A stretch of 64,000 nucleotides of DNA from Alphaproteobacteria bacterium (GTDB lineage: Bacteria; Planctomycetota; Phycisphaerae; UBA1845): assembly GCA_028285105.1 (NCBI GenBank), contig JANQQE010000011.1, forward strand, positions 383,856-447,855, written 5' to 3'. Positions within the stretch are counted from its first letter, which is position 1. Every line of letters begins with the position of its first letter. The translations under genes were made by a program, and so were the position numbers. Positions 4,563 to 44,130 of this stretch are shown piece by piece. The notes under the pieces were generated by a model that saw only the letters and a list, made by a program, of their open reading frames with translations, was not told where the DNA came from and ran no database searches.

Positions 4563-4591
4563 GCGGCTGCTGAACCTAAAGAAACTCACAA

Positions 4592-4627: not shown

Positions 4628-4647
4628 TAGGCGATGATTAAAGGCGT

Positions 4648-5160: not shown

Positions 5161-5171
5161 GGTGGCTCATT

Positions 5172-5966: not shown

Positions 5967-6016
5967 GGTTCGATCCGTTTCTTGCTGGCGATTCTGTTAT
6001 TTTCTTGAGAAATGGC

Positions 6017-6706: not shown

Positions 6707-7464
6707 CTCTTTCTCCTGAGCTTTTTTCGCTGAACGTCGGCGACGAATCGCGCGAGTTCGGCCTTCTGCTCTGCAAAATCGACCGTGGGCAAAGGAATCA
6801 AGCGCAAACCCCACAATTGCTTGTGTTCCGTCCCAATCGATTTCTTGTGACACAACTTGGCGGCTGCCACCTTTCGACCGCATTCATCGTCTAGCTCATA
6901 CTCGACAAAGAACGTCATCCCATTCTTTGCATCAAGCAGTTCTTTTGCGTGCAGGACGATTGCCATTCCTCTTGCACTGATGTCGCGTATCACGCAGGGA
7001 TGCGATGTCGTCGCAAGGTCGCAAGCGTTTTCAAATCGCGCACTCGCTCGCATGATTCGGCAGTACTGACCAAGCGACGCAACACCGACTCGGTAGTCGC
7101 GGCGCCGTTGCTGAATCTTAAGCTCTGCCGGAATCGCCAACGCCATCCCGACGACGCGTTTCTTATCGTTGAGCCGAACGAGTCGCCGCATTTTTTCGAC
7201 CCGTGACTCAAACGACCATTGATCGTTGCCCTGCGTAAAGTAAACCGTGATTCCCTCGCCGCTGTGTAAAGAAACATCCTCATCGATGTTGTGCGGCTGA
7301 TCGATACAAACGGCGTCTTTCTCAAGGGTCAGGAATCGAAACCGTGCTGTCTTGATCGGATTGGAATGGAGCGCGTAGTGGATATCGCCCGAAACGTTGC
7401 GCGCACAGAGTCCTTGCAGGACTTCGGTCACTTCGGACGTTTCGACAACGGAGCTTTCGGACAC
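6703..7464 (-). CDS. YcgR-like PilZ domain protein (paralog 3)
   Basis: PilZ motifs QQRRRDYR ... IRDISARG. 253 aa. Its stop overlaps the start of the downstream paralog (ATGA). Confidence 0.65.
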   Translation of the reverse strand: MSESSVVETSEVTEVLQGLCARNVSGDIHYALHSNPIKTARFRFLTLEKDAVCIDQPHNIDEDVSLHSGEGITVYFTQGNDQWSFESRVEKMRRLVRLNDKKRVVGMALAIPAELKIQQRRRDYRVGVASLGQYCRIMRASARFENACDLATTSHPCVIRDISARGMAIVLHAKELLDAKNGMTFFVEYELDDECGRKVAAAKLCHKKSIGTEHKQLWGLRLIPLPTVDFAEQKAELARFVADVQRKKLRRKR

Positions 7465-9360: not shown

Positions 9361-9554
9361 CATTGCTGCCAAGCCCATTCGTACCGCGCCAACCCATTTC
9401 ATTGGCGTTTTCGTCCGTCTTGCCACACGGAGACGGCTCATGATGGTTCGGATACGAGCATAAACATATACTGTAGCAAGGCCAATGATTGAACCGATTG
9501 ACTTAGTAGACCTCGAACTGTTGGCAACTTGTCTAGGCAGGAGAATTCGACGCG

Positions 9555-11306
9555 ATGAATCGAACGGTTGCCACTGCGGTATCTTTGTTGATCGGATTGT
9601 TTTTGACGACGTCAAGTGGGTTCGCGCAATTGGCCCCAGGAAGCGACGGCCGTCTCCTCGATGCGAACAACCAGGTGGGGTCCGGGGGCATTAACACTGC
9701 CACTCCTCGTAATCTGTTCAACACGTCGAATCTGTATATCACCGGAAACACCACGCGCGGCACGGCGTTTCAAGGATTCTCGCCGGTCCGCAATCAGTTC
9801 AGTCTGTTTTCTACACTTCCTTCGACGGTTCTGGCCAACTTTGAGCGTGATTCGGTCGGATTAAATTCGATCACAGGTTACGGCGCGATCGGCGTTACCA
9901 ATCCCTATTTCAATCGAACGCAAACCGTCGCCAATGCCGGGGCCATCGGTGCGGGGTTGAATCAGATCGGATCGTCGATACCCGCCAACAACTACTTCGC
10001 GCCGACGCGCCAATCCTTGCCATCCAACTCACGCCTCTATGGTTTCAACACGCTTGCCGATCAGTACAACATCAACCCAACGGCTCCGAATGCAACGATT
10101 CCCGGAACGACTCCGTTGGCCGATTTTTCGGGTTATTCGAATTCACTTGATCAACTCCGCCTGACCCGCGAGACATCCGCTCTTCAGTCTAGCCCGCTTT
10201 TTCCGAATGCCCGCGATCGATTCTCATTGTCAGGCACGCCGGTGTACCAGAACCCTTACGTCAATCCTTACGGCGAAAGTACCGATTCGCTTCTTCGCGA
10301 AACGGCACCGTTGGGACGTTCGCAGCGCTCAATTGACAATCCGCTCCGCCGGCCCAACAGCGAAGAAATGTTGACGGCATCGAATGAACTGATTTCGCCG
10401 ACATCGGTCGCGCCCCGCCTGTTTCAATCGGCGCTGACTAATCAGCGACGCGACCCACTCACAGGCAGAACGCTTCCGGATGATTCGCGGTATCTTGCGA
10501 TTCAATCTGGAGAATCGGGCAACATGATTCAACCGTCTACGTTGACGCGACCGGCCAACGCATCGATGCCAGCAGGCGCAACAACTGCTTACGGTGAGGG
10601 ATCGATCGACATCGATACGATTGCAGCCGGAAACCGTGCCGCACGATTTGAGTCCTACACACCGGACTCAATCGCAGCCGCTAACAGCTTGCTTGAGCAG
10701 CTCCAATCCAAACCCAACGTGACGGACGCGCCTGGTGACGGTGAGATGCAGAATCAAATGTCGCGTGCGCAGTCCATTCTTGACCGGGCGACTACCGAAT
10801 CACTTTCGACTCTTGCAAGCACTGAACAAACGTCAAGTGCGCAACTCATTGCAGATGCCGAGAAGCGCGTTCTTGAAGGCAACTATTACCAAGCCGCCCA
10901 GCTATACGAAATGGCTTCTCGAAAGGCTCACAATGAGGCGATGCCGCGACTTGGTCATGCCCATGCCTTATTCGCAGCCGGCGAATTTATGACAGCCTAT
11001 CGACATCTTGTACGGGCGATCGAACTCTACCCGGCGTTTGGTTATCTCAATTTTGATTTGACGACGTTTATTCCCGACGCCAACTTGATCGACGTTCGTC
11101 GGGCCAAACTCGAAGAGCAGCTAAAGAACAAGGAAGATTACCGCCTCCGATTCCTGCTTGGGTATGTGGAATACTACATCGGATTGAAGCAGTTTGGATT
11201 GCCAAACCTGCGACGGGCTGCGGGCGATGCGCCGGAAGGCTCGATTCCGAAACGCTTCCCGGACATGCTCGAACGACCCGCATCCGCTGCGAAGCCTAAG
11301 AACTAG
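9555..11306 (+). CDS. Secreted protein with an N/S/T/P-rich low-complexity region and a C-terminal TPR-like helical domain
   Basis: Signal peptide MNRTVATAVSLLIGLFLTTSSGFAQ. Long polar low-complexity middle region. The C-terminus (YYQAAQLYEMASRKAHNEAMPRLGHAHALFAAGEFMTAYRHLVRAIELYP) is TPR-like. Confidence 0.6.
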   Translation: MNRTVATAVSLLIGLFLTTSSGFAQLAPGSDGRLLDANNQVGSGGINTATPRNLFNTSNLYITGNTTRGTAFQGFSPVRNQFSLFSTLPSTVLANFERDSVGLNSITGYGAIGVTNPYFNRTQTVANAGAIGAGLNQIGSSIPANNYFAPTRQSLPSNSRLYGFNTLADQYNINPTAPNATIPGTTPLADFSGYSNSLDQLRLTRETSALQSSPLFPNARDRFSLSGTPVYQNPYVNPYGESTDSLLRETAPLGRSQRSIDNPLRRPNSEEMLTASNELISPTSVAPRLFQSALTNQRRDPLTGRTLPDDSRYLAIQSGESGNMIQPSTLTRPANASMPAGATTAYGEGSIDIDTIAAGNRAARFESYTPDSIAAANSLLEQLQSKPNVTDAPGDGEMQNQMSRAQSILDRATTESLSTLASTEQTSSAQLIADAEKRVLEGNYYQAAQLYEMASRKAHNEAMPRLGHAHALFAAGEFMTAYRHLVRAIELYPAFGYLNFDLTTFIPDANLIDVRRAKLEEQLKNKEDYRLRFLLGYVEYYIGLKQFGLPNLRRAAGDAPEGSIPKRFPDMLERPASAAKPKN

Positions 11307-15692: not shown

Positions 15693-15910
15693 GAAATTCA
15701 ACCAACAGGCCTCTTGATCTGCAAACCGCCTCATGATCTGCAAAACAATGTAACAGGCGATTGCACCCGAACAAGCCCATACAAATTCAGACATCGTCCA
15801 GGGATTGTTACCCTTATTCGTTGACTTGCCGATTGGCGATCCATTAGCCTGAGGGTAGCACCACCGGGCATTCAAGACGGTAACCCGTCATCTCAACCTG
15901 GAACCGAACC

Positions 15911-18715
15911 ATGTGCAAGTCGCTATGGACCATTGGCTGCATCCTTTCTACGACCGCTGCCGTTTCAAACTTTCTGTCAATGCCATTGATGGCCGATACC
16001 GGTGAAGACACATATCAACCTGCGCCTCAATTCGACATCGACCAGTTCGACAATCGCGAAAAACCCGATGATGCGTACCTACCCAATCGGCAGCTGCGCG
16101 AATCGGGAACCGTGGAACAACGGCAAACTTTTTCTCGCGGACCGTACGTTTCGGTGCAAGTCAATGTCAATGCACTGGGTGCCAACAGACAGGGAGACGC
16201 CGCAAACGAGCCTTCGATCGCTGTCAATCCTCTCAATCCAAACGAAGTGGTCATCGGTTGGCGGCAGTTTGATTCGGTGGCCTCTAATTTTCGACAAGCC
16301 GGTTGGGCTTATAGCCACGATCGTGGCCAAACCTGGACGTTTCCAGGATCGATCGAATCTGGACTGTTCCGAAGTGATCCGGTTCTGAACGTCAGTCCGG
16401 AGGGCGTGTTCTATTATTACAGCTTAAATTCTAATCTAGAATGCGACATGTTTCGATCATACGACGGTGGTGTCACATGGGGGCCCCGAATTTTTGCTTT
16501 TGGCGGCGACAAAGCCTGGATGACCGTTGACCACACAAATGGCCCGGGGCGAGGCAATGTCTACACATCCTGGAGTTTCATAGGTGGTTGTTGCGGAATA
16601 AATATCTTTACTCGATCGGTAGATAATGGATTAACCTACATCGTACCGATACAGCTTCCTCTCGGTCCAAGACATGGCCAACTCGATGTTGGCCCGAATG
16701 GGGAACTGTACATTTCCGGTCGTGCTTCTGACAACAATGCTGAAGTCATCAAGTCCTCAAACGCGCAAAACTCCCTTGAAACGCCGGTATTCGAAGTCTT
16801 TACAACGCCCTTCATTGGTGGCGATACGTCTTCAGGAGGCGTGAACCCCGCTGGCCTGTTGGGGCAAATGAATATCAGTGTGGATCGGTCTAACGGGCCA
16901 ACGCATGGATACGTCTATATTCTAGGGTCGGTTGATCCTCCCGGACCTGATCCGCTGGATGTCATGTTCGCACGCAGTACGGATGGCGGACTGAATTGGG
17001 ACCCGCCGGTTCGAGTCAACGACGACGCGCTTTCAACAAATGCTTTTCAATGGTTTGGAACGATGTCTGTCGCACCCAATGGACGCATCGATGTCGTTTT
17101 TAACGATACGCGCGAATTCCCGGATGACAGCCGATCCGAACTTTACTATGCAACGTCTTCGGATGGAGGCGTTACATGGGCCGAGAATATCCCAGTCAGT
17201 CCTTCGTTCGACCAAAGCTTGGGATATCCAAACCAGGACAAGCTGGGCGACTATTACGACATGGTCTCTGACAATATTGGCGTGGGCGTCGCCTACGCAG
17301 CAACCTTCAATGGCGAGCAGGACGTTTACTACTTGCGAATCAATCCTTTCGATTGCAATGAAAATGGCGTTGACGATTCGGATGACGTCAGCTTGGGGAC
17401 CAGCCTGGACTGCAACGAAAACTCTTTCCCAGATGAATGTGAAGGCGACTGCAATGCGTCAGGCATTCCCGACGACTGCGATGTCGCAAGCCAGACAAGC
17501 ACCGATTGCAACAGCAACGGTTTCCCGGATGAGTGTGAAACCGACTGCAATTCAAATGGCGTCCCGGACGATTGCGACATTCTGAACATGACCAGCGACG
17601 ACTGCAATCAGAGTTTCGTGCCGGATGAGTGCGAGCTTGTTGGCAGCGATTGCGATTTCAATCAGGTTCTGGACGAATGCCAGTTGGATGAATTGGCGGG
17701 TTCACTGACATCACCGACAGATCAATCCGTATGTCCCGGTAGCAGCTCGGTTTTTTCAGTCAGCTCGCCACTTGGAGGACTTGCCTATCAATGGGAGAAG
17801 AACGGCATTCCGCTTGTCGAAGGCGTCGATGGCAATGGTACAGCAACAGCCAACTTGACCCTCACAAACGTAGATGCGTCAGATGTGGGTTCTTACACCT
17901 GCGTCGTGAATTCAGGTTGCATTTCCACTGAGAGCGCCTCTGCCTTGCTCAGTCTGTTTGAACCCGTGGCGATCACCCAACAACCAACAGGTCTCTCACA
18001 GACCTGTGCGGGAAATACAGTCGTATTTGGGATAGAAACCGTCGGCGACAACGTTTCATACGTGTGGCAGAAGGACGGAATACCGCTGGTTGAAATGCCC
18101 GGATTAATTGAAGATGTCGATACCGCGCAACTTCGCATTCTCGACATTAGCGCATCGGATATCGGCGATTACAGTTGCGTCGTCGCCGACAGTTGCGGTG
18201 GCTCGGAGGAATCCGAATCTGCGACGTTTTCCGTTGGTAACGCCAGTTTTGTTGTTCAGCCAACACCCGTTTGCGTCGAAGCAGGTGACACGATTGCGTT
18301 GACAGCCACCCCTGATGCCGGCGGACTTTCAATCTTCCGACAATGGCATAAGGACGATGCTCCACTCTTTGACAGTGGCAATGTTTCCGGGGCGTTTACG
18401 GACACGCTGACAATCCAAAAAGCCTCCGTTGCAAACGAAGGCGAATATGCGTTGAGGGCGCTGGCCATTGGACCGAACTGTGTCACGTTCAGTGAGCCCG
18501 TCAATGTTGTTCTCGATTCGTGCGTTTGCAATTCACCAGGCGACATCGATGAGGACGGCGACATCGACCTGGCAGACCTTCATCGATTTACGCAGTGCTT
18601 TGGGAGCAATGTCGCCGTTGTCAATGTGTGCGCCTGTGCGAATATTGACGACACCGACGACATGGTCAATCTTTTTGATTGGACGCCTTATGCGCCTCTC
18701 GTGGACGGCCCCTGA
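15911..18715 (+). CDS. Giant secreted BNR/Asp-box repeat beta-propeller protein (sialidase-like fold) with DCNxNGxPDxCE repeats, three Ig-like domains and a C-terminal dockerin-like domain
   Basis: Signal peptide. Four Asp-boxes (SHDRGQTW, SYDGGVTW, STDGGLNW, SSDGGVTW). Tandem repeats DCNENG..DCNSNGFPDECETDCNSNGVPDDCD. Three repeats of the QWxKDGxPL Ig-like pattern. C-terminus GDIDEDGDIDLADLHRFTQCFG...NIDDTDDMVNLFDWTPYAPLVDGP. Confidence 0.75.
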   Translation: MCKSLWTIGCILSTTAAVSNFLSMPLMADTGEDTYQPAPQFDIDQFDNREKPDDAYLPNRQLRESGTVEQRQTFSRGPYVSVQVNVNALGANRQGDAANEPSIAVNPLNPNEVVIGWRQFDSVASNFRQAGWAYSHDRGQTWTFPGSIESGLFRSDPVLNVSPEGVFYYYSLNSNLECDMFRSYDGGVTWGPRIFAFGGDKAWMTVDHTNGPGRGNVYTSWSFIGGCCGINIFTRSVDNGLTYIVPIQLPLGPRHGQLDVGPNGELYISGRASDNNAEVIKSSNAQNSLETPVFEVFTTPFIGGDTSSGGVNPAGLLGQMNISVDRSNGPTHGYVYILGSVDPPGPDPLDVMFARSTDGGLNWDPPVRVNDDALSTNAFQWFGTMSVAPNGRIDVVFNDTREFPDDSRSELYYATSSDGGVTWAENIPVSPSFDQSLGYPNQDKLGDYYDMVSDNIGVGVAYAATFNGEQDVYYLRINPFDCNENGVDDSDDVSLGTSLDCNENSFPDECEGDCNASGIPDDCDVASQTSTDCNSNGFPDECETDCNSNGVPDDCDILNMTSDDCNQSFVPDECELVGSDCDFNQVLDECQLDELAGSLTSPTDQSVCPGSSSVFSVSSPLGGLAYQWEKNGIPLVEGVDGNGTATANLTLTNVDASDVGSYTCVVNSGCISTESASALLSLFEPVAITQQPTGLSQTCAGNTVVFGIETVGDNVSYVWQKDGIPLVEMPGLIEDVDTAQLRILDISASDIGDYSCVVADSCGGSEESESATFSVGNASFVVQPTPVCVEAGDTIALTATPDAGGLSIFRQWHKDDAPLFDSGNVSGAFTDTLTIQKASVANEGEYALRALAIGPNCVTFSEPVNVVLDSCVCNSPGDIDEDGDIDLADLHRFTQCFGSNVAVVNVCACANIDDTDDMVNLFDWTPYAPLVDGP

Positions 18716-19073
18716 GGCGCGGCAATCCGTCCGCGGCATTAAAGATACACTTCGGATACACGATACGTCGTTTATCGGCCAAAGACTGCAAATGCACGCT
18801 TGTAACAACACCTGCGCCTCCAATACAATGCATGTAGGTGTGTGATGGTCTTCGCTGTTGACCGGCAATTCTGATTCAGGGACAGAGCGCGCGTCAACCG
18901 ATCATCAATCGATAAAACCAGTCTGGACTCTTATAACCTAACCGGGCGACTCGGTATTCCGAGTAACTCGGTTTGTATGCGCGGTTCGCGCATCGATTGG
19001 CCGAGGCTTTGGTGCGGCTCAATTTGAACGAATTTGGAATTCACCAAGACAACCATTCGGAGACTGAATAAGC

Positions 19074-22000
19074 ATGTTTCTAAACCTCAGAAACCACTCA
19101 ACATCTTTCGCATTGCTATTCCTCGCCAGTGTTGCCGTAACGGCGCTGACTCAGCCCAATGACGCAAATGCAGAGCGCGTTTCCAAGGAACGAGCCGAAT
19201 TGCTCATGCCACTCGTATCGCAGGAGTTCGGACTGCGCGAATTCAGTATTCAACGCCTTGACTTGGCCAACGAGCAAAATCGGAGTACCTCCATGGTGCT
19301 TCAAATCGACGACGCAGATCGCGAAATCGTCCTATCGCCTCATCGCGTTTTCTCCCACGATTATAAACTGCTTGTTGACTTGGGTGACGGCCGTCTTGAA
19401 GAAGCTGACATGGGCGCAATCCGAACGTTTCGCGGAACCATGCCCGAAGTTCCCGGTAGCGTTGTGGCGGGCGGTTACTCCGACGAAGGTATGTCGGCAA
19501 AGATCGTCGCTGACAATGACAACATTTTCTGGGTCGAACCCTTGCGCGGGCGCGTTGCTGGGGCAGATGCATTTGAACATGTCGTTTATCGCTCAGGCAG
19601 TACGCTGCCCCATGGACGCACATGCGGTACGCTTGAAGAAGCGGTTGTCGAAAGAATTGCAGATCAAGGCGCTGAGAATGGTTCACGCGGATCGGGATGT
19701 GGCGGAGGTATTTGCGTCACGGATGTGGCCTGCGATGCCGACCTTGAATACTTCCAGGACTATGGAAGTGTCGCCAATGTTCAAAATCGCATTGGTACCG
19801 TCATCAACGCCATGAACGTTCAGTATGAGACGCAAGTCGGAATCACCCATCAGATCAACACCATTCTTGTCCGCACGACGCAGGTTTACACAAGCAACAA
19901 TGCCGGAACGCTGCTCGACCAGTTCAGATCGCGATGGCTAAACAACCATACGAATATTGCACGTGATATCGCGCATTTATTCACCGGAAAGAATCTGCAA
20001 GCGCCCACGATCGGTGTCGCTTGGCCCGGTACCATTTGCGCCAGTCTGACATCGGGATTGGGTTTCAGCCTAGTCGAATCGGACTTCAGCGGCAGTTTTG
20101 CATGTGCCACCGACCTTTCCGCTCACGAGCTTGGCCACAATTGGAGCGCCCTGCATTGCAGCTGCCCGTCACACACGATGAACCCCAGCATCACGTGTGC
20201 AAATAACTTCAACGCCTCGTTTACAATACCGGACATCATCAACCATCGCGATTCGCGCAGTTGCCTTAGTCCGTTTGAATCGGGTGTCGCAATACTTCCG
20301 TTCTTCGACGACTTCCCGTCGACGACGCTCGATCCAAGCAAATGGACGGGCATCGACGGCGCGGAAAGTAACAGCGCAGGCAGCGGGGAACCCAGCGCTT
20401 CCAATTCGCTAAACATCGACGGAAGCGATCAAATTCGTTCGGCCATCATTGATACGTCGGTACCGCTGGGGCTCGACATTTCGTACTTCTGGCAACGAAC
20501 AGGAACGGGCAATTCACCGGAAAACGGCGAAGACTTAATCGTCGAATATCTCGCCGCTTCGCAATTGTGGAATGTTATCGCAACCTATCCCGGCAGCGGT
20601 TCGGACTCAGACCCATACGCATTCGATTCGTTTGAACTGCCCGCAGATGCGCTTCATGACAATTTCCGTTTGCGCTTTCGCGGAATTTCATCAAATGCCG
20701 GTTTCGATGACTGGTTCATCGACGACATTGGCATTGACGCCTGCTTTGGCGCGACCGTTGCTCCTCAACCCCAGCCGGCTGAAGGGTGCCCAGGCAGCAA
20801 TCTACAGTTTTCGACAGTTGGAACAGGTGGAGAACCGATCAGTTATCAGTGGTTCAAGGACGACAACATACTTGTCGATGGCGGTGGCATCAGCGGCAGC
20901 TCCACGAACACGCTATCGATCGACGGTGTCGTCGATCCCAACGACGAGGGCGCATACTACTGCGAAATCACAAACGAGTGTGGAACGCTATTGAGCGACA
21001 GCGTTTCGCTTACCGTTTTCGATCCCGTCGGTATTACGGCTCAACCGCCCACACTCATCAGCGCATGTACCGGCGAAACTGAACTCATTCCAGTGGGCAC
21101 CGTTGGCGACAACCTAACTTATGAATGGCGCAAAGACGGTGTCCTTCTGGTTGATGGTGGCAACATTTCGGGTGCTACCACCGGAACCCTCAGCCTCACC
21201 AACGTCAGTACCGCTGAAGTGGCCAACAGTCCGGGATATGTCTGCACGGTGCTTGATGCGTGCGGTAATCTGGTCGAAAGCAATGCCACCGAGGTCGAGA
21301 TCGCCGGCGCCAACATTACAGGGCAACCGACCGACGATTGCGTGAATGACGGCGAGGTCGCAACGTTTACCGCAACGTATAACGTCCCGGGAGGCTTCAG
21401 TTCATTCGTTCAATGGCATAAAGATGGATCGCCTTTGAACGATGGTGGTAACATTTCCGGAGCGCTGACGGATACTTTAACCGTTGATCCTGCCTCACTG
21501 GCTGACGCTGGTGACTATTCCCTGCGCATTTTGGTGATTGGTCCAAATTGCATCATCTTCACTGACGAAGCCGCCTTGTCGATCGGCGACTGCGGATGCA
21601 CGTTGGACAGTGAATGCGAAGATGGCAATCCCTGCACCGACGACGTGTGCGACGGTGTCCTGGGTTGCATCAATCCCAACAACAGCGATCCGTGCGACGA
21701 TGGAGATGCTTGCACGACAGTGGACTCGTGCAGCGGTGGATCGTGCGTCGGTTCAAACCCTCTGGTCTGCGACGATACGAATCCTTGTACCGACGATTCA
21801 TGCGATCCCGGAAGCGGGTGCATCTTTACGAACAATACAGATTCGTGCGACGATGGCGACGCATGCACCACAGTGGATCAGTGCAACAGTGGTTCGTGCG
21901 TCGGCTCATCCCCGTTGGTGTGCGATGACACCAATCCTTGCACCGACGATTCATGCGATTCGGGTAGCGGTTGCGTGTTTGTCAATAATACCGATCCATG

Positions 22001-22373
22001 CGACGACGGCGATGCGTGTACAACGGTCGACTCGTGCAGTGGCGGTTCCTGCGTGGGTTCAGGCCCTCTTGCTTGCGACGACGGAGAATTCTGCAACGGT
22101 GTCGAATCATGCGACAGCGGAACAGGTTGCATCGCCGGTTCGGACCCCTGCGACGGTTCAAGCTGGTGCGATGAGCCCTCCGACGCCTGTGTGCCATACG
22201 GAAATGGAGACATCAATATCGACGGCAGCGTCGATTTGATCGATTTCGCCGCATTCCAGACGTGTTTTGGCTTGCCTGCTGGCGGCGGATGCGAGGCTTT
22301 GAATCTGACCGGTGACGCCATCGTGGATCTTGCAGACTTCGCGGCGTTGGAAGCGTTACTGACCGGTCCGTAG
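19074..22373 (+). CDS. Giant secreted M12B (reprolysin/adamalysin-like) metzincin with three Ig-like domains, Cys-rich CxDGNxCTxDxC repeats and a C-terminal dockerin-like domain
   Basis: Signal peptide. Zinc motif HELGHNWSALH (HExxHxxxxxH, close to reprolysin HELGHNLGxxHD) with Met (HTMNP) downstream. Three Ig-like repeats (QWFKDDNILVDGG, EWRKDGVLLVDGG, QWHKDGSPLNDGG). Five tandem Cys-rich repeats (CEDGNPCTDDVCDG...). C-terminus NGDINIDGSVDLIDFAAFQTCFG...DAIVDLADFAALEALLTGP. Confidence 0.75.
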   Translation: MFLNLRNHSTSFALLFLASVAVTALTQPNDANAERVSKERAELLMPLVSQEFGLREFSIQRLDLANEQNRSTSMVLQIDDADREIVLSPHRVFSHDYKLLVDLGDGRLEEADMGAIRTFRGTMPEVPGSVVAGGYSDEGMSAKIVADNDNIFWVEPLRGRVAGADAFEHVVYRSGSTLPHGRTCGTLEEAVVERIADQGAENGSRGSGCGGGICVTDVACDADLEYFQDYGSVANVQNRIGTVINAMNVQYETQVGITHQINTILVRTTQVYTSNNAGTLLDQFRSRWLNNHTNIARDIAHLFTGKNLQAPTIGVAWPGTICASLTSGLGFSLVESDFSGSFACATDLSAHELGHNWSALHCSCPSHTMNPSITCANNFNASFTIPDIINHRDSRSCLSPFESGVAILPFFDDFPSTTLDPSKWTGIDGAESNSAGSGEPSASNSLNIDGSDQIRSAIIDTSVPLGLDISYFWQRTGTGNSPENGEDLIVEYLAASQLWNVIATYPGSGSDSDPYAFDSFELPADALHDNFRLRFRGISSNAGFDDWFIDDIGIDACFGATVAPQPQPAEGCPGSNLQFSTVGTGGEPISYQWFKDDNILVDGGGISGSSTNTLSIDGVVDPNDEGAYYCEITNECGTLLSDSVSLTVFDPVGITAQPPTLISACTGETELIPVGTVGDNLTYEWRKDGVLLVDGGNISGATTGTLSLTNVSTAEVANSPGYVCTVLDACGNLVESNATEVEIAGANITGQPTDDCVNDGEVATFTATYNVPGGFSSFVQWHKDGSPLNDGGNISGALTDTLTVDPASLADAGDYSLRILVIGPNCIIFTDEAALSIGDCGCTLDSECEDGNPCTDDVCDGVLGCINPNNSDPCDDGDACTTVDSCSGGSCVGSNPLVCDDTNPCTDDSCDPGSGCIFTNNTDSCDDGDACTTVDQCNSGSCVGSSPLVCDDTNPCTDDSCDSGSGCVFVNNTDPCDDGDACTTVDSCSGGSCVGSGPLACDDGEFCNGVESCDSGTGCIAGSDPCDGSSWCDEPSDACVPYGNGDINIDGSVDLIDFAAFQTCFGLPAGGGCEALNLTGDAIVDLADFAALEALLTGP

Positions 22374-32671: not shown

Positions 32672-32684
32672 AAGTGCCTCCATT

Positions 32685-36695: not shown

Positions 36696-38195
36696 TCAGT
36701 TCAGGTCGAAGAATACCTGCAATTCGGCGAAGTCGGCTAGATCAACCGCCGTGTCAACATTGAAATCAAAGCATTCGCACTCAAGACCCAGCCCGGTCGG
36801 CGATTGTGCGAGGCATGCTGCGAATGCGTTGTAGTCCGTGATGTCCACGTTGATGTCGGCATTGCAGTCGCCTTCGATATCCAAGATTGCATCGTAGCTT
36901 GCGAGGGGGTCACCGATGACGACCGATTGCCAGCTTAGAAATGGAAGCGATGCGTAGGCGGCTTCTGCCCAGGTGCGTTGGTTGACCAGCATTCGGGTCA
37001 TGAGAAATTCGTTGTCGGGCTGGGCGACGGAAAACGGTTCGAAGACGTTGCCCACTGCAAACGTTCCGCCGGCGGCTACGAAGTCTGTGACCTGCTCTTG
37101 ATTGAACAGCGTGCCCAGACCGTTCAGCGCGCGGGCGTTGTATGACTCGACCGTGTTGAAGATCGCACCCTTGGCGAAGTTGAAATTGTTGATGTACGTT
37201 CCCGAGCCCGGCGGATTCGCGCCAGCCCCCTCGTTGCTGTGGTTTTCGCCGTAGGAAGCATAGCCAATCAGCGGCCGCGGCTCCTCGCTGGATTCGATGA
37301 AGTCAAACGTGCCATCATACCGCACGTTCCAGCCGTTGATGGCGAGCACAAAAAACGTGTCCTCGTAGTCGTCGCCCGGATCGATGAAAAACGGATCGTC
37401 GTCGAGTTCGTTACCGACCGTCACATCGAATTCGTCAAGAAGGATGTGCGTCGTCTCACGGTTGACGGTGATATCCTGCGAATGCGTGATCAAGTTGAGC
37501 GCATCCGTTTGCGAATTGCCGTCGATGCGACAGACAAGGTACATATCTCCCGGCGTCAATCGCGCCGACCCGCTGCTCGTCACCGCCCACCCTATGTTCG
37601 ACACATTCGCGAACGTCTTTGCAAATGTAATGAACCCACGCGAAAACGCATCGATCGCCGTCGCGCTGGTGTGGTACGGATTCTGGATCATGTTGTCGGC
37701 AAGGCTGTCCATCTGCCCGCCGGCTTCTCCGTTGCTGAGATTCTGCCACAGCAGAACGAGTTCGGAGTCGACCGATGCATAGGTGATGTCGCCGTCATTG
37801 ATTTCCGTGATGGCAGCGCCCGGATTGTCGCCCACAAGCGCGATGTCGCTGTCAAGAATGCGGTGCGGTATCGGCCGGATCAACACGATGGCAATGATGT
37901 CGCTCGGTTGCGGGATACCTGCTGCACTCAAGTGATTGCGAATCGGATCACGAACCTTGGAATTGAAATCGGCGATTGAAAGATCGGCGGTCAGCAGCGA
38001 TGCGTCATTGAGATCGACGACATTCGATGCACCGATGCCGGCGTGAGCAGCCAGATAAGCATCTTTAAGCGCCGTCCCATCGGATGACGCTGAATTGTAG
38101 ACTACGAGCGTCTGACTCTCCGAGATACCGCCAAACGCTTCGCAAGCAAGCACAACTACAAACGCGCACACCTGACCGACTCGATTTAATTGCAT
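36696..38195 (-). CDS. Secreted protein with a C-terminal dockerin-like domain
   Basis: Signal peptide MQLNRVGQVCAFVVVLACEAFG. C-terminus GDCNADINVDITDYNAFAACL...ECECFDFNVDTAVDLADFAELQ resembles the dockerin-like tails of the three giant hydrolases. Confidence 0.6.
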   Translation of the reverse strand: MQLNRVGQVCAFVVVLACEAFGGISESQTLVVYNSASSDGTALKDAYLAAHAGIGASNVVDLNDASLLTADLSIADFNSKVRDPIRNHLSAAGIPQPSDIIAIVLIRPIPHRILDSDIALVGDNPGAAITEINDGDITYASVDSELVLLWQNLSNGEAGGQMDSLADNMIQNPYHTSATAIDAFSRGFITFAKTFANVSNIGWAVTSSGSARLTPGDMYLVCRIDGNSQTDALNLITHSQDITVNRETTHILLDEFDVTVGNELDDDPFFIDPGDDYEDTFFVLAINGWNVRYDGTFDFIESSEEPRPLIGYASYGENHSNEGAGANPPGSGTYINNFNFAKGAIFNTVESYNARALNGLGTLFNQEQVTDFVAAGGTFAVGNVFEPFSVAQPDNEFLMTRMLVNQRTWAEAAYASLPFLSWQSVVIGDPLASYDAILDIEGDCNADINVDITDYNAFAACLAQSPTGLGLECECFDFNVDTAVDLADFAELQVFFDLN

Positions 38196-38835: not shown

Positions 38836-40071
38836 TTGATGAACCGAAGCGAACGCTCCATTCTGATTGTTACAGGCATCGGACACGCTTTGTGCCATTG
38901 GTGGGCGTTGCTCGTTACGGGAATCTTTGAGCCCTTGCGCGCCGACTTCGGACTGACTGGATTTCAGGTTTCGGTGCTTCCGGTGATCGGTTATGTCCTC
39001 ATGGGTGCAGGTGCATTGCCGGCTGGCTACTTTACGGATCGAATCGGTCCGAAACCGATGTTGCTTGTTTACTTTGTTTCGACGGCACTGGCGTGTGTGT
39101 CTGCCGTGCTGGCTTCGTCGGCTGTCTCGTTTGCAATTTCACTGACCTTTCTCGGAGCCGCCATCAGCCTGTACCACCCCACCGGTCTCGCGATGATTTC
39201 GCATGGATTTGAAAAACGTGGACAGGCGATGGGCATTCATGGAATTGCCGGTTCCCTTGGACTATGCGGCGGACCGTTGGCCATGAACCTTGCGAATCTC
39301 GGTGACTGGCGTCTGAGCTATTGGGTGATGGCTGGCGTCTCTTTCTTGTCAATGGTTATTCTCTTGATGCTTCCGATCGAACTTCGCGAAGATCCTAGCA
39401 AACCAGCCGAATCGACCGAGGCCCCTGTCGAAACGATCAAACCATCGTATCGCCTGTTGGCGTTTCTCTTTGTGCCGATGATGTTGACGGGGATTAATTA
39501 CCGAGCGGTGATGACGGCGCTGCCGACGTATCTTTCCGGTGGCGATGGCGATTCGACACTGGCGAAATTCTTACTGTTTCTTGTGTTCCTTGCCGGCGGG
39601 GCGAGCCAGTTCTTGATGGGACGACGTGCCGATCGGTCGCATCCGTCGAAACTGTATGCCAACCTGATCGCGTTGAGTATCCCGTTGGCGCTGCTGCTCG
39701 CCTGGTCTGGCGGTGGAAGTTACCTTGCCATCGCGATCGCGCTGGTCTTGGCTGTCGTCCACTTCGGAACCCAGCCAGTCGAAAACCTGCTTATCGCCGA
39801 ACACACGCCACATTCCCTTCGCAGCATCTCGTACGGTTTGAAGTTCACATTAACGTTCGGTCTTGGTCCGGTGGCTGTGCCATTGGTGGGCTACTTTTGG
39901 GACGAAACGGGCACATTGGCTTGGACATTCGTATTGTTTGCGTTGATTGCAACCGTGGTTGCGATGCTGATCATGCGGTTGGTTAAACTCGTAGACGCGC
40001 AATCGCTGTCTACAGGAGCGCCCGCGATCGAATCCGCGGTCAGCTTAGGGACCGTCGATCAAACCGGATAG
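38836..40071 (+). CDS. MFS transporter
   Basis: 411 aa with 12 predicted TM segments in two 6-TM halves separated by a central loop. MFS-like motif region GYFTDRIGPK. Confidence 0.8.
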   Translation: MMNRSERSILIVTGIGHALCHWWALLVTGIFEPLRADFGLTGFQVSVLPVIGYVLMGAGALPAGYFTDRIGPKPMLLVYFVSTALACVSAVLASSAVSFAISLTFLGAAISLYHPTGLAMISHGFEKRGQAMGIHGIAGSLGLCGGPLAMNLANLGDWRLSYWVMAGVSFLSMVILLMLPIELREDPSKPAESTEAPVETIKPSYRLLAFLFVPMMLTGINYRAVMTALPTYLSGGDGDSTLAKFLLFLVFLAGGASQFLMGRRADRSHPSKLYANLIALSIPLALLLAWSGGGSYLAIAIALVLAVVHFGTQPVENLLIAEHTPHSLRSISYGLKFTLTFGLGPVAVPLVGYFWDETGTLAWTFVLFALIATVVAMLIMRLVKLVDAQSLSTGAPAIESAVSLGTVDQTG

Positions 40072-43000
40072 CGCATCCCAGTCGCCTTGATTTATCACGT
40101 CGCTGATACCGTCTATATCTGCGCATCCGCAACTGGGATTGACGAAGATGTTCTGCCCGAAACAGATCGAAAACAGATGCATGTCGAACAGATCGTAGTC
40201 GCCGTCGCTGTCCATATCGCCCGGTGCCAAACAGCAATCACCCACAGTCAGCTCAGCCTCCTCACTAAATTGGAAGCAATTTGGCCCAATGGTCAGAGCA
40301 CGCTGTTCGTAGACTCCTGCATCGGACGCCTGAATCGGATCGATGGTCAGCGTATCGGTGAATGAGCCTGTGACGCGGGACGAATCCACGATGGGATTTC
40401 CGTCTTTAAACCACTGCGTAAACTGCGTTAGTCCATCGGGCGAAACGGCGGTCGCAGTCATCGTTGCCACCTCACCGGGATCGGCGCAGGTATCGGTCGG
40501 CTGATTCGTGAATATCGGCCCAACGATGCTCAACGTCATTGCCTCGGACTCGACGCTCCGCCCGCAGCCGTCGGTAATTACGCATGAGTACCCGGGCTGG
40601 TCGGCTTGATCCTCAGACGACAAATCGTCAATTGTCAGCGATGCAGACTTTGCACCGCTTACTCGCTGGCTGTTCAGAATGGGTTCGCCATCTTTAAGCC
40701 ACTGATATTGCAATTGGTACCCCACGGCTTCGATCACCACGATGACCGTAGTATCAGTGCAACTCGAATCGGAGGCTGGCGGCTGAGTCACAATGGATGG
40801 TTCAGGCGATATCGCCAATTCGACGACATCGCTTTCAAGATTCATGCAACCAATTGAAACCACGCAATGGTATGAGCCAACCGCACTTTCTCCGGCATTC
40901 GCGATTGAAAGAATCGCCGCCATCGAACCGGACACATTGACGCTGTCCGCAAGCGGCAGGCCATCTTGATACCATTGAAAGGCCGTGGCCTGCGGCGCAT
41001 TAACCACAAACTGCGCCGTTGCCAGCGGACAGACCGAAGTCGATAGCGGCTGAGCAAGGATTAAGTCGCCCGTCTCGCAGTCGTCTGGGATATCGTTTTC
41101 GTTGCAATCCGGTTCGTCGCAAACGTCTGGCTTGCCATTGCCATTGCAATCGTCATGCGCCTCGCACACATCGAGTACGCCGCTGTCGTCGCAGTCCGGA
41201 TCGATCGCATCTTCGCATGAACCACAACCGAACTGCTCGACGAGCCCCACACAGAATTCGTCCCACTCGTCATCGCAGCACGAAGGCGCATCATCACATA
41301 CACACGCCTGAATAGTGGGGTTCGAACAACCGGGTCCATGTTCGATTTCGCAGCAGTCGCCCGGACCGATGATTTCAATTTCGCAATCGTCAGGCACGAG
41401 GTTCTCATTGCAATCGCTGGAAGTCTCGCCGGCAAGATCACATTCGTCCAACACACCGTTGCCATTGCAATCGGGCGTTTCGCATTCGTCCGGAATCGCA
41501 TTGACGTTGCAGTCGGTGCTGGTCGCGCCACCAATATCGCACGCATCAACGATACCGTTGGCGTTGCAGTCGGCTTCGCATTCGTCGGGAATGCTGTTGG
41601 AGTCGCAATCGACCGGGACGGTACATGTCCCGCAGCCATACTGCTCAACGCGATAGGCACAGATACCGTCCCAGTTGACCTCGCAGCAATAAGGGTCGGT
41701 GGCGCAAACGCACGCCTCAATCGATGCGTCTGAGCATCCTTTACCTACACTACCTTCACAGCAATCGTGTCCAAATGCACCGTCTACTTCGCACGCATCG
41801 GGCACGATGTTTTCGTTGCAATCCGGCTCGCCGGTAGCGATGTCGCAGTCGTCGGGAATACCATTGCCATTGCAATCGGTCTCGCAATCGTCGGGCAAAT
41901 GGTTCGCATTGCAATCGCTGCTTGTCGGACCGATGATGTCGCAACTGTCGGCTATACCATTGTCGTTGCAATCGGACTCGCACTCATCGGGAACTCCGTT
42001 TCCGCTGCAATCGTCGCTCGATTTGTTGGCGATGTCGCAGATGTCTTGTACACCGTTGGTGTTGCAATCGTCCTGCGGTTGGCATTCGTCCGGCACACCG
42101 TCACCGTCACAATCCGGTGAAATGCCCATCCCGATATCTTCAAAATCTGGCACACCATTGGTGTTACAGTCCGGAGGCTCGGATGCGACGCTTCCGGTGG
42201 CGATGAGCGCGAAACCTTGCGCCCCTTGATTAACGACCGTCCCTTTAATCCGAATGGTCCATTCACCCACGGTCGGACCCGATACGTGAACCTGTTCGAC
42301 GTTGTTGACGCTGTCTGCCGAACCGTTGGGAGCGGATTGCCCGTTGACGAAAACGTTTCCGCGATAAAGTTGTGCCTCGGGCGAAACGACTTCGAGGTCG
42401 AGGTTGTTGACAAGCGCCGCACTGCTTCCGGTTGACGCGGAGGCCGGCGGATCGGTATAAACGAGGGTCACGCGCAACTGTTCCTCATTTTCTAGCACGG
42501 TGACGGCGTATTCCTCAACCTGCTCAGTCGAAAGTCCGGATGCGTTGCGCAGATCGTCGAGTACCACAAGATGGGTGGCATCGCCGGCAAAGTACACCGC
42601 GTTGTCTGCCAGCAACCGCCCCCACCCCTCAAGATTCGACGGGTAGCCGCCAATCCCGGTCATGTCGACGGCGGAGTTGATGAGTACCGCTTTGATCAGA
42701 GCCCCGCTTGGCGTAAAGGCATCGTCGAGATTCGCTACGCCGGAAGGATAAAATCCCTCCATAAAATACTGCCGCACCAGCGTCGCAGTTCCCGCGACGG
42801 CTGGGCACGCCATCGACGTTCCCGTACTGGGCAGCACGTTGCAGGCACTCGGCACTGCCGAAATCGTATTGCACCCAGGCGCGTAGATTTCTGGCTTACG
42901 GCGCCCATCCGCCGTTGGACCAATGCCGCCACTACAATGATTCTGCTGATTCGGCGTATCCTGCGAAGCGCCGACCGCAAGAAGGTTTTTGGCATTTTCT

Positions 43001-44130
43001 GGATTGCGGAGCGTTGAACCGTTCGTCACCGCAAGGCACGCAAAATCGTCTTCATTTTGGTACAGAAAATCATCAAAACCGCGGCAGAGTCCGTTGTACG
43101 CAGTCGTGCCGTCGTCGCCCCAACTGTTCGTATGGATTCGGGCACCCTGACTGTGATGCAGTTCGAGGTTGGTCGAGATACCGGATTCCGTAAAACTCGG
43201 TACCGGGCTGAACACCATCTTTGAACCGTAGGCGACACCGCGGCGGCTGTCATCGACGCCATTGTTGCCAGCCGCCGTGCAGGCTACGTGTGTACCGTGT
43301 GAACTGTTACCGTCGAACGAGTTGTAAAATAGAAACTTTCCGCCATCCAGCGAACAATGGTGGACATCGGGCCGGCCGTCCATAATTCCGATGATTTGAT
43401 TTTCGCCGCGAAGACCATGATCGTAAAACGGAAATTCCTGTGACACATTGCTCTGCACAATCCACCGCGTGGTGTTGTTTCGCAAGGTGATCTCAGGTGC
43501 TTCCTCAACCAACTGCACGGTCTTGATGTCTGCCAGCGATTCGACGCGATCTTCGGAGATATCTGCGAAAATGACGACACTGTCTGCAACACGCTCACGC
43601 CCATGGACCGTCGCCCCTCGCTTCCGCAACGCTACGATTGCAGTCTTGGGATCCTCATGTGCAAACAGAGTGATCATCAGACGAACCCGACCGGACTCGG
43701 CCAGTTCAATGCGCTCCGGCGTCTCAAGCGGAGCGATACGCTTCCCAATTCGCGGAGAGCATTTCCATTCGCGGCGGTACTCTCCCAACCATTGGACAAA
43801 TGGAATCGCAGCCAACTCGTCGCGCGATACACGCTTGACATCAGCAATGTAGGCATGGTCGGGCACGTATTCGTGCAGTACAACGCCAAGTTTTTGAAGT
43901 CGCGTTCGTTGACGCGCATTGATCGGCCCGGTCAATTGCAGAATCACGCGATGGGTCTTGGCAAAATCAAACTTGCGCGCGTCAAGCAAGCTGGATTCCC
44001 ATCGGGTGTCCAGTTCGCCAGCTTGCAGGAGCAGTCGGCATGACGCTTCACCGGTTTGTGGCGTTTGTTGCCCGAGCGCAGACGCGCCAAAAAAACAAGC
44101 AATAAGAATTGACAAGAAAGCGCGACGCAT
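40045..44130 (-). CDS. Giant secreted S8 subtilisin-family serine protease with DCNxNGxPDxCE repeats, two copies of a 10-Cys module, three Ig-like domains and a C-terminal dockerin-like domain
   Basis: Signal peptide. Catalytic residues in subtilase order: Asp (IGIMDGR), His (HGTHVACTAAG), Ser (GTSMACPAVAG). Tandem DCN..NG..PD.CE repeats. Duplicated module CC-x6-GC-x7-CVC-x4-CC-x3-WD-x2-C-x7-GCGxC. Three Ig-like repeats (FQWYQDG, YQWLKDG, TQWFKDG). C-terminus GDMDSDGDYDLFDMHLFSICFG...DIDGISDVINQGDWDALSGLIDGP. Confidence 0.85.
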   Translation of the reverse strand: MRRAFLSILIACFFGASALGQQTPQTGEASCRLLLQAGELDTRWESSLLDARKFDFAKTHRVILQLTGPINARQRTRLQKLGVVLHEYVPDHAYIADVKRVSRDELAAIPFVQWLGEYRREWKCSPRIGKRIAPLETPERIELAESGRVRLMITLFAHEDPKTAIVALRKRGATVHGRERVADSVVIFADISEDRVESLADIKTVQLVEEAPEITLRNNTTRWIVQSNVSQEFPFYDHGLRGENQIIGIMDGRPDVHHCSLDGGKFLFYNSFDGNSSHGTHVACTAAGNNGVDDSRRGVAYGSKMVFSPVPSFTESGISTNLELHHSQGARIHTNSWGDDGTTAYNGLCRGFDDFLYQNEDDFACLAVTNGSTLRNPENAKNLLAVGASQDTPNQQNHCSGGIGPTADGRRKPEIYAPGCNTISAVPSACNVLPSTGTSMACPAVAGTATLVRQYFMEGFYPSGVANLDDAFTPSGALIKAVLINSAVDMTGIGGYPSNLEGWGRLLADNAVYFAGDATHLVVLDDLRNASGLSTEQVEEYAVTVLENEEQLRVTLVYTDPPASASTGSSAALVNNLDLEVVSPEAQLYRGNVFVNGQSAPNGSADSVNNVEQVHVSGPTVGEWTIRIKGTVVNQGAQGFALIATGSVASEPPDCNTNGVPDFEDIGMGISPDCDGDGVPDECQPQDDCNTNGVQDICDIANKSSDDCSGNGVPDECESDCNDNGIADSCDIIGPTSSDCNANHLPDDCETDCNGNGIPDDCDIATGEPDCNENIVPDACEVDGAFGHDCCEGSVGKGCSDASIEACVCATDPYCCEVNWDGICAYRVEQYGCGTCTVPVDCDSNSIPDECEADCNANGIVDACDIGGATSTDCNVNAIPDECETPDCNGNGVLDECDLAGETSSDCNENLVPDDCEIEIIGPGDCCEIEHGPGCSNPTIQACVCDDAPSCCDDEWDEFCVGLVEQFGCGSCEDAIDPDCDDSGVLDVCEAHDDCNGNGKPDVCDEPDCNENDIPDDCETGDLILAQPLSTSVCPLATAQFVVNAPQATAFQWYQDGLPLADSVNVSGSMAAILSIANAGESAVGSYHCVVSIGCMNLESDVVELAISPEPSIVTQPPASDSSCTDTTVIVVIEAVGYQLQYQWLKDGEPILNSQRVSGAKSASLTIDDLSSEDQADQPGYSCVITDGCGRSVESEAMTLSIVGPIFTNQPTDTCADPGEVATMTATAVSPDGLTQFTQWFKDGNPIVDSSRVTGSFTDTLTIDPIQASDAGVYEQRALTIGPNCFQFSEEAELTVGDCCLAPGDMDSDGDYDLFDMHLFSICFGQNIFVNPSCGCADIDGISDVINQGDWDALSGLIDGP

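Follow-up and report, generated by a model that had tools for sequence, protein, structure and literature searches.

Why should neighboring genes whose products begin in unrelated ways end alike? In the 64-kb window, the whole stretch of DNA analyzed here, which belongs to a genome of the Phycisphaerae (Planctomycetota), an earlier note described two adjacent genes of this kind, and both open reading frames are as it gave them: 934 aa at 15911..18715 and 1099 aa at 19074..22373, each on the forward strand. Their N-terminal parts are indeed unrelated, with Asp-boxes and a Pfam BNR match in the first and a reprolysin domain in the second.

Two neighboring genes with different cargos

The 15911..18715 gene encodes a putatively secreted BNR/Asp-box propeller protein bearing a full C-terminal cassette. 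The protein starts with a hydrophobic stretch, MCKSLWTIGCILSTTAAVSNFLSMPLMA, taken here for a Sec signal, and the N-termini of all four cassette or tail carriers in the window are hydrophobic. Four clear Asp-boxes are present (SHDRGQTW, SYDGGVTW, STDGGLNW and SSDGGVTW). The Pfam BNR score is borderline (28.1 bits against a cutoff of 27; BNR_2, 26.7 against 31.4), and the match to sialidases in the PDB covers 80 aa only (E = 0.005), so that the label of hydrolase, initially applied to both proteins, is overstated here. The product of 19074..22373 is a putatively secreted M12B (reprolysin-like) metalloprotease. Its catalytic domain (aa 215-379; 19716..20210, + strand) matches Pfam Reprolysin_5 (66.3 bits) and Reprolysin_3 (54.4 bits) above cutoff, as well as Reprolysin_4 and Reprolysin, and the zinc motif HExxHxxGxxH is present as HELGHNWSALH, with Ser replacing the usual Gly. 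Loci L001 and L002 hold syntenic orthologues of the BNR gene, adjoined by orthologues of the M12B gene.

A shared C-terminal cassette

Both proteins contain the three Ig-like domains originally reported (I-set/Ig_3, E = 1e-15 to 1e-19), at aa 598-868 of the BNR protein (17702..18514, + strand) and aa 564-837 of the M12B protein (20763..21584, + strand), and these align in register, Ig1 with Ig1, at 41-43% identity. The three Ig copies pass the Pfam cutoff (I-set 70.1, 55.5 and 57.2 bits; Ig_3 67.8, 58.0 and 63.8 bits), the first value of each series being that of the BNR protein. Each protein then ends in a tail of ~62 aa, at aa 871-934 (18521..18712, + strand) and aa 1039-1099 (22188..22370, + strand), respectively, and stops directly after DGP or TGP, as had been noted. 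The order of three Ig domains followed by the tail applies to the BNR protein, whereas in the M12B protein a run of ~200 aa (aa 838-1036; 21585..22181, + strand), made up of Dicty_CTDC-like repeats rich in Cys (Pfam Dicty_CTDC 57.4 bits), separates Ig3 from the tail. The DNA counterpart of these repeats is a 153-bp tandem repeat (2.7 copies) at 21676-22082.

A third gene, on the reverse strand at 40045..44130, encodes a putatively secreted 1361-aa S8 subtilase (Peptidase_S8 105.8 bits) with the full cassette: three Ig-like domains (aa 1026-1296; 40243..41055, - strand), identified by Pfam and alignment, and a tail (aa 1298-1361; 40048..40239, - strand) that also ends in DGP and is 49% identical to the BNR tail. 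The cassette had been called identical to that of the neighboring pair; the identity is only 44%. The fourth carrier, a putatively secreted 499-aa protein of the TIGR03790 family (36696..38195, - strand; NCBIfam TIGR03790 77.6 bits), has the tail alone, without the Ig set, as the earlier note had it, and its tail (aa 441-499; 36699..36875, - strand) ends in DLN rather than GP.

Upstream of the Ig domains, a regular expression finds five DCNxNGxPDxCE repeats in the BNR protein (aa 478-592; 17342..17686, + strand) and eleven in the S8 protein, the latter together with two ~47-aa Cys-rich inserts (aa ~650-1020; 41071..42183, - strand). Neither repeat region has a Pfam match. Each BNR repeat looks like a Cys-clamped EF-hand-like loop. 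With these repeats, the unit shared by the BNR and S8 proteins extends to ~450 aa. The claim of a same architecture thus stands for the three Ig domains and the tail, common to the BNR, M12B and S8 proteins, and is overstated in view of the M12B insert and of the DCN repeats in the BNR and S8 proteins.

The BNR protein matches protein P0119 over 454 aa without gaps at 58% identity, including the five repeats, and their N-termini are unrelated. Because of this match, and because cassette identities cross cargo types, the cassette is read as a shuffled unit that has been moved whole onto unrelated catalytic domains, mostly those of peptidases. The cargos include S8, M12B, C10, HEIGH metalloprotease, FG-GAP, PPC-containing, astacin, lysyl-endopeptidase-like and Exo_endo_phos proteins, which bears out the proposal of one module grafted onto diverse exoenzymes. 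Carrier genes are often neighbors, standing in tandem in loci L083, L084, L005, L001 and L002, and all carriers whose source is named come from Phycisphaerae or Planctomycetota MAGs. A profile built from the third Ig domain of carriers in other genomes only scores the Ig3 domains of the BNR, M12B and S8 proteins at 108.9, 100.8 and 93.5 bits, and Ig1 and Ig2 at 20-50 bits; Ig3 of type-A carriers (defined below) is thus distinct and kept in position.

The tails are homologous and conserved

The tails fall into two types. Type A (BNR and S8) follows the pattern CxC..PGDMDxDGDxDL..CFG..CxCAN..DW..GP, from which type B (M12B and 36696..38195) departs. All four are Asp-rich and Pfam misses two of them, so that their likeness might be put down to chance in low-complexity sequence, a reading to which we give almost no credence. 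The earlier note would have been refuted by tails that align in Asp content alone, and these align well beyond it. A profile built from non-window tails only, searched against 712 six-frame ORFs, retrieves the BNR (E = 3e-29), S8 (9e-23), M12B (1e-11) and 36696..38195 (1.4e-5) tails, with the next best ORF at 0.019. The invariant non-acidic positions of type A (five Cys, F, W, G and P) and a confident fold prediction that matches only dockerins likewise refute chance likeness.

In type-A loop 1, D is invariant at EF-hand positions 1, 3, 5, 7, 9 and 12 in 16 of 16 tails, which suggests that the Ca2+ ligands are conserved. The M12B tail is 74-90% identical to those of its orthologues. Since orthologous tails overall (64-90% identity) are conserved as much as the catalytic domain (67-72%) or more, the tail is under purifying selection.

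The tail is predicted to adopt a dockerin fold

When the tail profile is compared with the PDB, the best matches are all dockerins, aligned along the entire domain (2y3n_B, E = 7e-4; 5lxv_B; 2vn5_B; 2b59_B; 8x39_A). Structure prediction, the check proposed at the outset, agrees: the AlphaFold model of the tail (pLDDT 92, pTM 0.76; helices 17-26, 35-40 and 51-60) resembles dockerins only, and the modeled ~60-70-aa domain has two EF-hand-like Ca2+ loops with a helix after each, which is what defines a dockerin. Of the four tails, the Pfam Dockerin_1 cutoff of 22.9 bits is passed only by that of 36696..38195, with 23.9 bits when scanned alone and 18.6 in the whole protein; the other type-B tail, that of M12B, stays below it at 20.2 bits (E = 7e-4). 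Type-A tails give no Dockerin_1 match even at E = 10 and no passing score with NCBIfam dockerin models.

The two halves of the tail differ between types. Type-B halves are ~36% identical, whereas the type-A segments GDIDEDGDIDLADLHRFTQCF and ANIDDTDDMVNLFDWTPYAPLV have, by inspection, few residues in common and differ in loop length, the second loop carrying a one-residue insertion. The dual binding mode of type I dockerins depends on two segments that nearly duplicate each other. Given the dissimilar type-A halves and longer second loop, the canonical dual-mode cohesin interface cannot be assumed.

Docking tag, standalone domain or sorting signal

We lean slightly toward reading the cassette tail as a docking tag, with the dockerin domain binding a cell-surface partner after export and the enzymes held on the Ig stalk. 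The 12-residue DxNxNGxPDxxE loops, each clamped by two cysteines, would be Ca2+-binding spacers resembling thrombospondin type 3 repeats, and the three I-set Ig domains in fixed order would form a stalk of ~10-12 nm. The 62-aa domain, predicted to consist of two Ca2+-loop/helix 'F-hands', has five invariant cysteines, probably in disulfides, and an invariant Gly-Pro cap. Following export, its binding to the surface partner would be Ca2+-dependent; the gene for this partner would lie outside the window, and its product would be either cohesin-like or a functional equivalent. Held at the tip of the Ig stalk, the enzymes could then digest proteinaceous or glycoprotein polymers near the cell in a 'planctosome'-like manner (see below).

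The absence of cohesin from the window, already remarked upon, is borne out: Pfam cohesin models match 0 of 44 scanned ORFs in the 64 kb, and no cohesin occurs among the precomputed Pfam matches of genes flanking four carriers elsewhere (L081-L085). These results are consistent with a dockerin fold that does not dock to cohesin and instead forms an autonomous terminal domain stabilized by Ca2+ and disulfides, a reading that we consider rather unlikely overall. Such a domain might shield the C-terminal end of the stalk from proteases, aid folding, or bind glycans of the envelope or substrate, and the Ig domains and DCN repeats would then be substrate-adhesion or spacer modules. The helix positions that would face a partner vary between carriers, which also favors it. 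So does the size of the dockerin-like family, with 14,182 cluster representatives (E <= 1e-3). Several copies occur in many of these proteins, and the profile match in such cases often lies away from the C-terminus, suggesting roles beyond enzyme tagging. For many non-cellulosomal dockerin-like modules no partner is known.

Alternatively, the GP tail could be a C-terminal sorting or processing signal, comparable to PEP-CTERM/exosortase, LPXTG/sortase or T9SS CTD systems, with Gly-Pro as the site of cleavage or covalent attachment. In every one of 16 type-A carriers the last or last-but-one residues are G and P, GP is commoner in terminal (31/68) than in internal copies (55/338), and NCBIfam names a separate Phycisphaerae tail ending in Gly-Cys 'GC-type dockerin domain-anchored'. 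Sorting signals pair a signature motif with a hydrophobic helix and a basic end, or are ~80-100-aa CTDs with a beta-sandwich fold. The tails, however, have neither a transmembrane segment nor a basic end, and their last 20 residues form, in the model, the acidic, amphipathic second dockerin helix. The 36696..38195 tail lacks GP, NCBIfam sorting-signal models do not match the window carriers, and no gene resembling a sortase or exosortase was seen in the 64 kb. Moreover, in multi-dockerin proteins GP also ends internal copies, with linkers and more domains after it (P0030, P0037 and P0054). We consequently regard a sorting signal, which the earlier note had entertained, as improbable, and GP rather as a domain-end motif, since it also closes internal dockerin copies.

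Relation to known dockerin systems

The docking reading places the cassette beside several described systems. A 'planctosome', a cellulosome-like protein-degrading complex, was proposed for the Phycisphaerae Nemodlikiaceae, with dockerin-tagged M12B and M14 peptidases and cohesin scaffolds (Andrei et al. 2019, ISME J; PMC6461901). The likeness lies in the bacterial class, in the dockerin-tagged M12B reprolysin-like peptidases and in thrombospondin-type-3-like Ca2+ repeats (PMC6461901). That hypothesis rests on recognizable cohesin and dockerin domains and on an LTD/P-domain anchor protein (PMC6461901), whereas the 64 kb hold dockerin-tagged M12B and S8 proteins, and no cohesin, adaptor, or LTD or P-domain anchor protein was found there. 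Dockerin-tagged S8 and C25 peptidases have also been proposed for Ca. Stygibacter of the Cloacimonadota (PMC8542988). There, too, S8 and other peptidases combine a signal peptide with a C-terminal dockerin; a 3,755-aa cohesin scaffoldin was however identified, and the phylum, dockerin subtype and accessory modules differ (PMC8542988).

Type-A tails depart from type I cellulosomal dockerins (PF00404; 2ccl_B, 2vn5_B and 8x39) in failing the Pfam model and in their five invariant cysteines, terminal Gly-Pro, dissimilar halves and extra residue in the second loop. Peptidases predominate among the cargos, in place of the glycoside hydrolases of those systems, and the host, unlike theirs, is a Gram-negative planctomycete, with no cohesin found in the window. 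NCBIfam NF041540 ('GC-type dockerin domain-anchored protein') is similar as a Phycisphaerae C-terminal dockerin-like domain with a terminal dipeptide and internal cysteines, but the window tails score <=12.8 bits against its cutoff of 29 and end in Gly-Pro, not Gly-Cys; L039, a true member used as positive control, scores 38.4 bits. Type-A carriers finally recall the X-module-dockerin dyads of type II dockerins (2b59 and 3kcp) in placing an Ig-like beta-sandwich just before the dockerin with almost no linker. The model of the Ig3-dockerin pair, however, does not show a rigid unit with confidence (pLDDT 76.6, pTM 0.62, dockerin part 48-70), leaving its orientation uncertain, and in the M12B protein Ig3 is 200 aa away from the tail.

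A dockerin-tagged peptidase complex in Phycisphaerae was thus put forward as early as 2019, and that description includes neither the three-Ig stalk nor the Cys-rich GP dockerin. On the sequence data presented here, the organism from which the window derives most likely equips a subset of its Sec-secreted enzymes with a lineage-specific C-terminal display cassette.

Carrier proteins

The two neighboring genes singled out in an earlier note are present exactly as described (15911..18715, + strand, 934 aa, and 19074..22373, + strand, 1099 aa), and their products both start with signal-like hydrophobic N-termini. The first, termed here the BNR protein, comprises four clear Asp-boxes and matches Pfam BNR at a borderline 28.1 bits (cutoff 27) and BNR_2 under threshold; its sole matches among PDB sequences are sialidases, over 80 aa (E 0.005). 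The second, the M12B protein, is a reprolysin-type metzincin (Pfam Reprolysin_5, 66.3 bits) with the zinc motif HELGHNWSALH. The S8 protease (40045..44130, − strand) and the TIGR03790-family protein (36696..38195, − strand) also exist as noted.

The M12B architecture departs from the proposed Ig triplet followed by a tail, as ~200 aa of Cys-rich Dicty_CTDC-like repeats (Pfam Dicty_CTDC, 57.4 bits) separate its tail from the third Ig domain (Ig3). The corresponding DNA is a 153-bp tandem repeat (2.7 copies, 21676-22082, + strand, 76% matches) encoding 51-aa Cys-rich units of this type. The orthologue at L001, a locus of another genome, is 80 aa longer (1179 versus 1099 aa), which suggests that the copy number of the unit varies. 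The reprolysin domain is separated from Ig1 by a ~180-aa domain without Pfam match (aa ~381-560; 20214-20760, + strand), which, with 77-78% identity among orthologues, is the second most conserved region of the protein.

A gene for a PLP-dependent enzyme (14682-15875, − strand) lies upstream of the BNR gene; translated from its listed start codon, TTG, it yields 397 aa, versus 341 aa in the L001 orthologue. The true start is probably downstream of this TTG, which would lengthen the divergent intergenic region.

A dockerin-fold tail

All four proteins share a C-terminal tail of ~62 aa, in agreement with the initial reading. A profile that drew solely on tails from other genomes, when run on 712 window ORFs, found the four window tails with E-values of 3e-29, 9e-23, 1e-11 and 1.4e-5, versus 0.019 for the best unrelated ORF. 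Since this independent profile recovers all four, the tails align beyond their Asp content and low complexity is ruled out as the source of their likeness; the same gap in E-values refutes chance similarity. Another profile match, at 9464..9691 (E 0.001-0.019), was discarded as noise because it is short and partial; it sits in a small alternative-frame ORF overlapping the start of the gene at 9555..11306.

The tails fall into two subtypes, type A (BNR and S8) and type B (M12B and the TIGR03790-family protein), the latter being nearer to canonical dockerins. Type A follows the pattern CxC-x2-PGDMDxDGDxDLxD-x3-F-x2-CFG-x8-CxCAN-x11-DW-x8-GP, whose five Cys, F, W and GP do not vary across 16 sequences, and has a one-residue insertion in the second loop and two dissimilar halves. 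The Pfam Dockerin_1 cutoff (22.9 bits) is passed solely by the TIGR03790-family tail scanned alone (23.9 bits); the M12B tail scores 20.2 bits, under the cutoff, and the BNR and S8 tails do not match this model. The NCBIfam model of the GC-type dockerin (NF041540), which comes from the same class but describes a different tail ending in GC, gives at best 12.8 bits with the window tails (cutoff 29), and matches the GC-ending tail of another Phycisphaerae locus, L039, with 38.4 bits. Our literature search found no paper on the term GC-type dockerin.

A search of the PDB with a 12-tail profile returned dockerins as best matches, aligned across the whole domain (2y3n_B, E 7e-4, then 5lxv_B, 2vn5_B, 2b59_B and 8x39_A). 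For the BNR tail, which Pfam misses, AlphaFold2 predicted a loop-helix, a short helix and a second loop-helix (pLDDT 92, pTM 0.76). In loop 1 of the tail, Asp is the sole residue at EF-hand positions 1, 3, 5, 7, 9 and 12. The profile matches and the predicted fold agree with the dockerin-like assignment of the earlier note and identify the tail, at the level of sequence and model, as a divergent, cysteine-bearing dockerin-fold domain, in which Ca2+ binding and disulfide formation would be expected. A joint prediction of Ig3 and the dockerin, in which an X-module-like rigid pair was sought, gave no such pair with confidence (pLDDT 76.6, pTM 0.62), the dockerin part being modeled poorly.

The initial description of the tail as ending in DGP or TGP stands in part: in type A carriers G and P are invariant, with at most one residue after them, and the tail of 36696..38195 ends in DLN. 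A C-terminal sorting signal, as had been suggested for the tail, would account for a fixed motif at the protein end. TGP, however, also closes internal copies in the multi-dockerin proteins P0030, P0037 and P0054, GP stands at the domain end of 55 of 338 internal versus 31 of 68 terminal copies, and the tail terminus has neither a hydrophobic nor a basic segment. Because internal copies carry it and the terminus lacks such segments, the reading that fits GP best is that it caps the domain structurally rather than serving as a sorting signal.

An ordered Ig triplet preceded by Cys-bearing repeats

Pfam detects the anticipated three I-set/Ig_3 domains in each of the BNR, M12B and S8 proteins, where they align in register with 41-43% identity. 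A profile built solely from the third Ig domain of carriers in other genomes scores 93-109 bits with Ig3 of the window proteins versus 20-50 bits with Ig1 and Ig2. As the profile singles out Ig3, the triplet is an ordered unit rather than a set of interchangeable repeats. The S8 cassette, initially described as identical, shares 44% identity with that of the BNR protein.

In the BNR and S8 proteins, the shared unit begins further upstream and takes in DCNxNGxPDxCE repeats, with 5 copies in BNR (17342-17686, + strand) and 11 in S8 (41071-42183, − strand). Each repeat conforms to the 12-residue pattern of EF-hand loops (D1, N3, N5, G6, D9, E/D12). Cys residues occupy positions 2 and 11, and the combination suggests Ca2+ loops clamped by disulfides and akin to thrombospondin type 3 repeats. 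The DCNxNGxPDxCE repeats match neither Pfam nor NCBIfam models. Among the S8 repeats lie two copies of one ~47-aa Cys-rich element, CCEGSVGKGCSDASIEACVCATDPYCCEVNWDGICAYRVEQYGCGTC (41623-41763, − strand) and CCEIEHGPGCSNPTIQACVCDDAPSCCDDEWDEFCVGLVEQFGCGSC (41215-41358, − strand), neither of which has a Pfam match.

Distribution, cargos and selection

The loci closest to the window come from Phycisphaerae MAGs. L001 has the same gene order as the window (M16 peptidase, PLP enzyme, BNR, M12B, RodA). In both L001 and a second locus, L002, the BNR gene lies next to the M12B gene, and each of the two encodes its tail. Among orthologues, tail identity (64-90%) is comparable to or higher than that of the catalytic domains (67-72%), which indicates selection on the tail.

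When 1.84 billion cluster representatives were searched exhaustively with a HMMER profile, 14,182 proteins passed E<=1e-3 and 1,118 passed E<=1e-10. The dockerin-like family in the wider sense is therefore large, and many proteins in it hold several copies. In word-indexed protein searches, the cassette gave 8 matches, the tails 20 and the Ig3-dockerin pair 6, mostly short fragments; these low counts are uninformative on rarity, because clear relatives found by HMMER, such as P0119, were missed.

Eight of the top HMMER matches are full carriers, in which the three-Ig cassette is joined by one GP-ended terminal tail. Six of them extend far enough to cover what precedes the Ig domains, and DCNxNGxPDxCE repeats occur in every full-length carrier from other genomes (6/6 among the matches listed). 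Cargos include S8, a HEIGH metalloprotease, FG-GAP repeats, a C10 peptidase, a PPC-containing protein and domains of unknown type, as well as astacin, a lysyl-endopeptidase-like domain and an Exo_endo_phos enzyme. Cassette identities run across cargo types. The last 454 aa of the BNR protein and P0119 are 58% identical without gaps, and their N-termini are unrelated. The range of cargos and this pair, alike only over the C-terminal 454 aa, bear out the proposal of a module shared by diverse exoenzymes. Sources annotate the carriers as "hypothetical" or "S8 family", and all those with names are Phycisphaerae, Phycisphaerales or Planctomycetota MAGs.

Carrier genes often occur in tandem, with two in L005, three consecutive dockerin-tailed genes in L084 (two with the Ig cassette) and three consecutive carriers in the Phycisphaerales MAG locus L083 (10001-20206; S8, lysyl-endopeptidase-like and one of unknown type). 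Some 3 kb downstream of the L083 carriers is a serpin gene (23102-23525), which may form a protease/inhibitor neighborhood with them.

Other features of the window

Three consecutive PilZ-domain genes (5172-7464, − strand; 264, 288 and 253 aa) may encode c-di-GMP receptors. Two adjacent, partly overlapping ORFs (56057-59508, − strand) match PmbA/TldD metallopeptidase C-terminal domains and look like a TldD/PmbA pair. A membrane protein without Pfam match (32685-33452, − strand) contains a striking run, DADLDLDMDMDLDVDMEMDVDLDGGLDLDGGADLDGGVDLDADG; its gene is immediately downstream of, and overlaps, an SPFH/Band 7 gene (31331-32740), and its product may be an NfeD-like partner. A 455-aa protein without Pfam match (61977-63344, − strand) begins with a lipoprotein-like N-terminus (...STHTGC), after which comes an extended low-complexity linker, (GGN)n. 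The first 5 kb (1-5170) contain only short ORFs (longest <=195 aa), among them matches to DUF2617 (3975-4562) and to the MGMT DNA-binding domain (4648-5160); an rRNA operon was rejected here, as an Rfam scan of the window gave no matches.

Discussion

Phycisphaerae are abundant polymer degraders in marine and freshwater settings. Non-cellulosomal dockerins have been known for long. Our data best support the cassette being a lineage-specific display device. In this reading, a spacer of Ca2+ loops, a stalk of three Ig domains and a dockerin-fold tip would be attached to Sec-exported enzymes. The tip would dock on a surface partner encoded elsewhere and thereby keep the enzymes, mostly proteolytic, near the cell. 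A rival reading takes the tail as an autonomous stabilizing or glycan-binding domain.

As first observed, the window shows no cohesin-like partner: Pfam detects none among its 44 ORFs over 64 kb, which does not imply genome-wide absence, and none is listed for genes flanking carriers in other genomes. The search for a partner also covered an unannotated 583-aa secreted protein (9555..11306, + strand), with an N/S/T/P-rich N-terminal half, a helical C-terminal half and no Pfam match; it is unrelated to an unannotated 554-aa neighbor of the L083 carriers. More speculatively, and in our estimate improbably, the Cys-rich GP dockerin and the fixed Ig3 would be the tag of an undescribed Phycisphaerae surface-display system, acting through a non-cohesin receptor, which could be an outer-membrane or S-layer component, or through dockerin-Ig self-assembly. 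Either form, if true, would mean that protease arrays are organized on the cell surface.

Andrei et al. (PMC6461901) proposed a Phycisphaerae "planctosome", in which cohesins and thrombospondin type 3 repeats accompany dockerin-tagged peptidases of families M12B and M14; this proposal is unproven, and the other five of six papers using the term are its preprint and works with a single mention. Similar ideas exist for Cloacimonadota (PMC8542988). As non-cellulosomal dockerin-tagged peptidases are already in the literature, our advance is incremental: we define a conserved ~450-aa cassette, its cargo breadth and tandem gene arrangement, and a Cys-rich GP dockerin subtype. This variant, which probably bears disulfides, could interest engineers of cohesin-dockerin parts. 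The DCNxNGxPDxCE repeats, three Ig domains and GP-ended dockerin together form a compact, recognizable tag that current Pfam and NCBIfam models miss. A dedicated profile would list the tagged secretome, mostly proteases, in any Phycisphaerae genome, and would supply both a bait for the receptor and a direct test of the "planctosome" idea.
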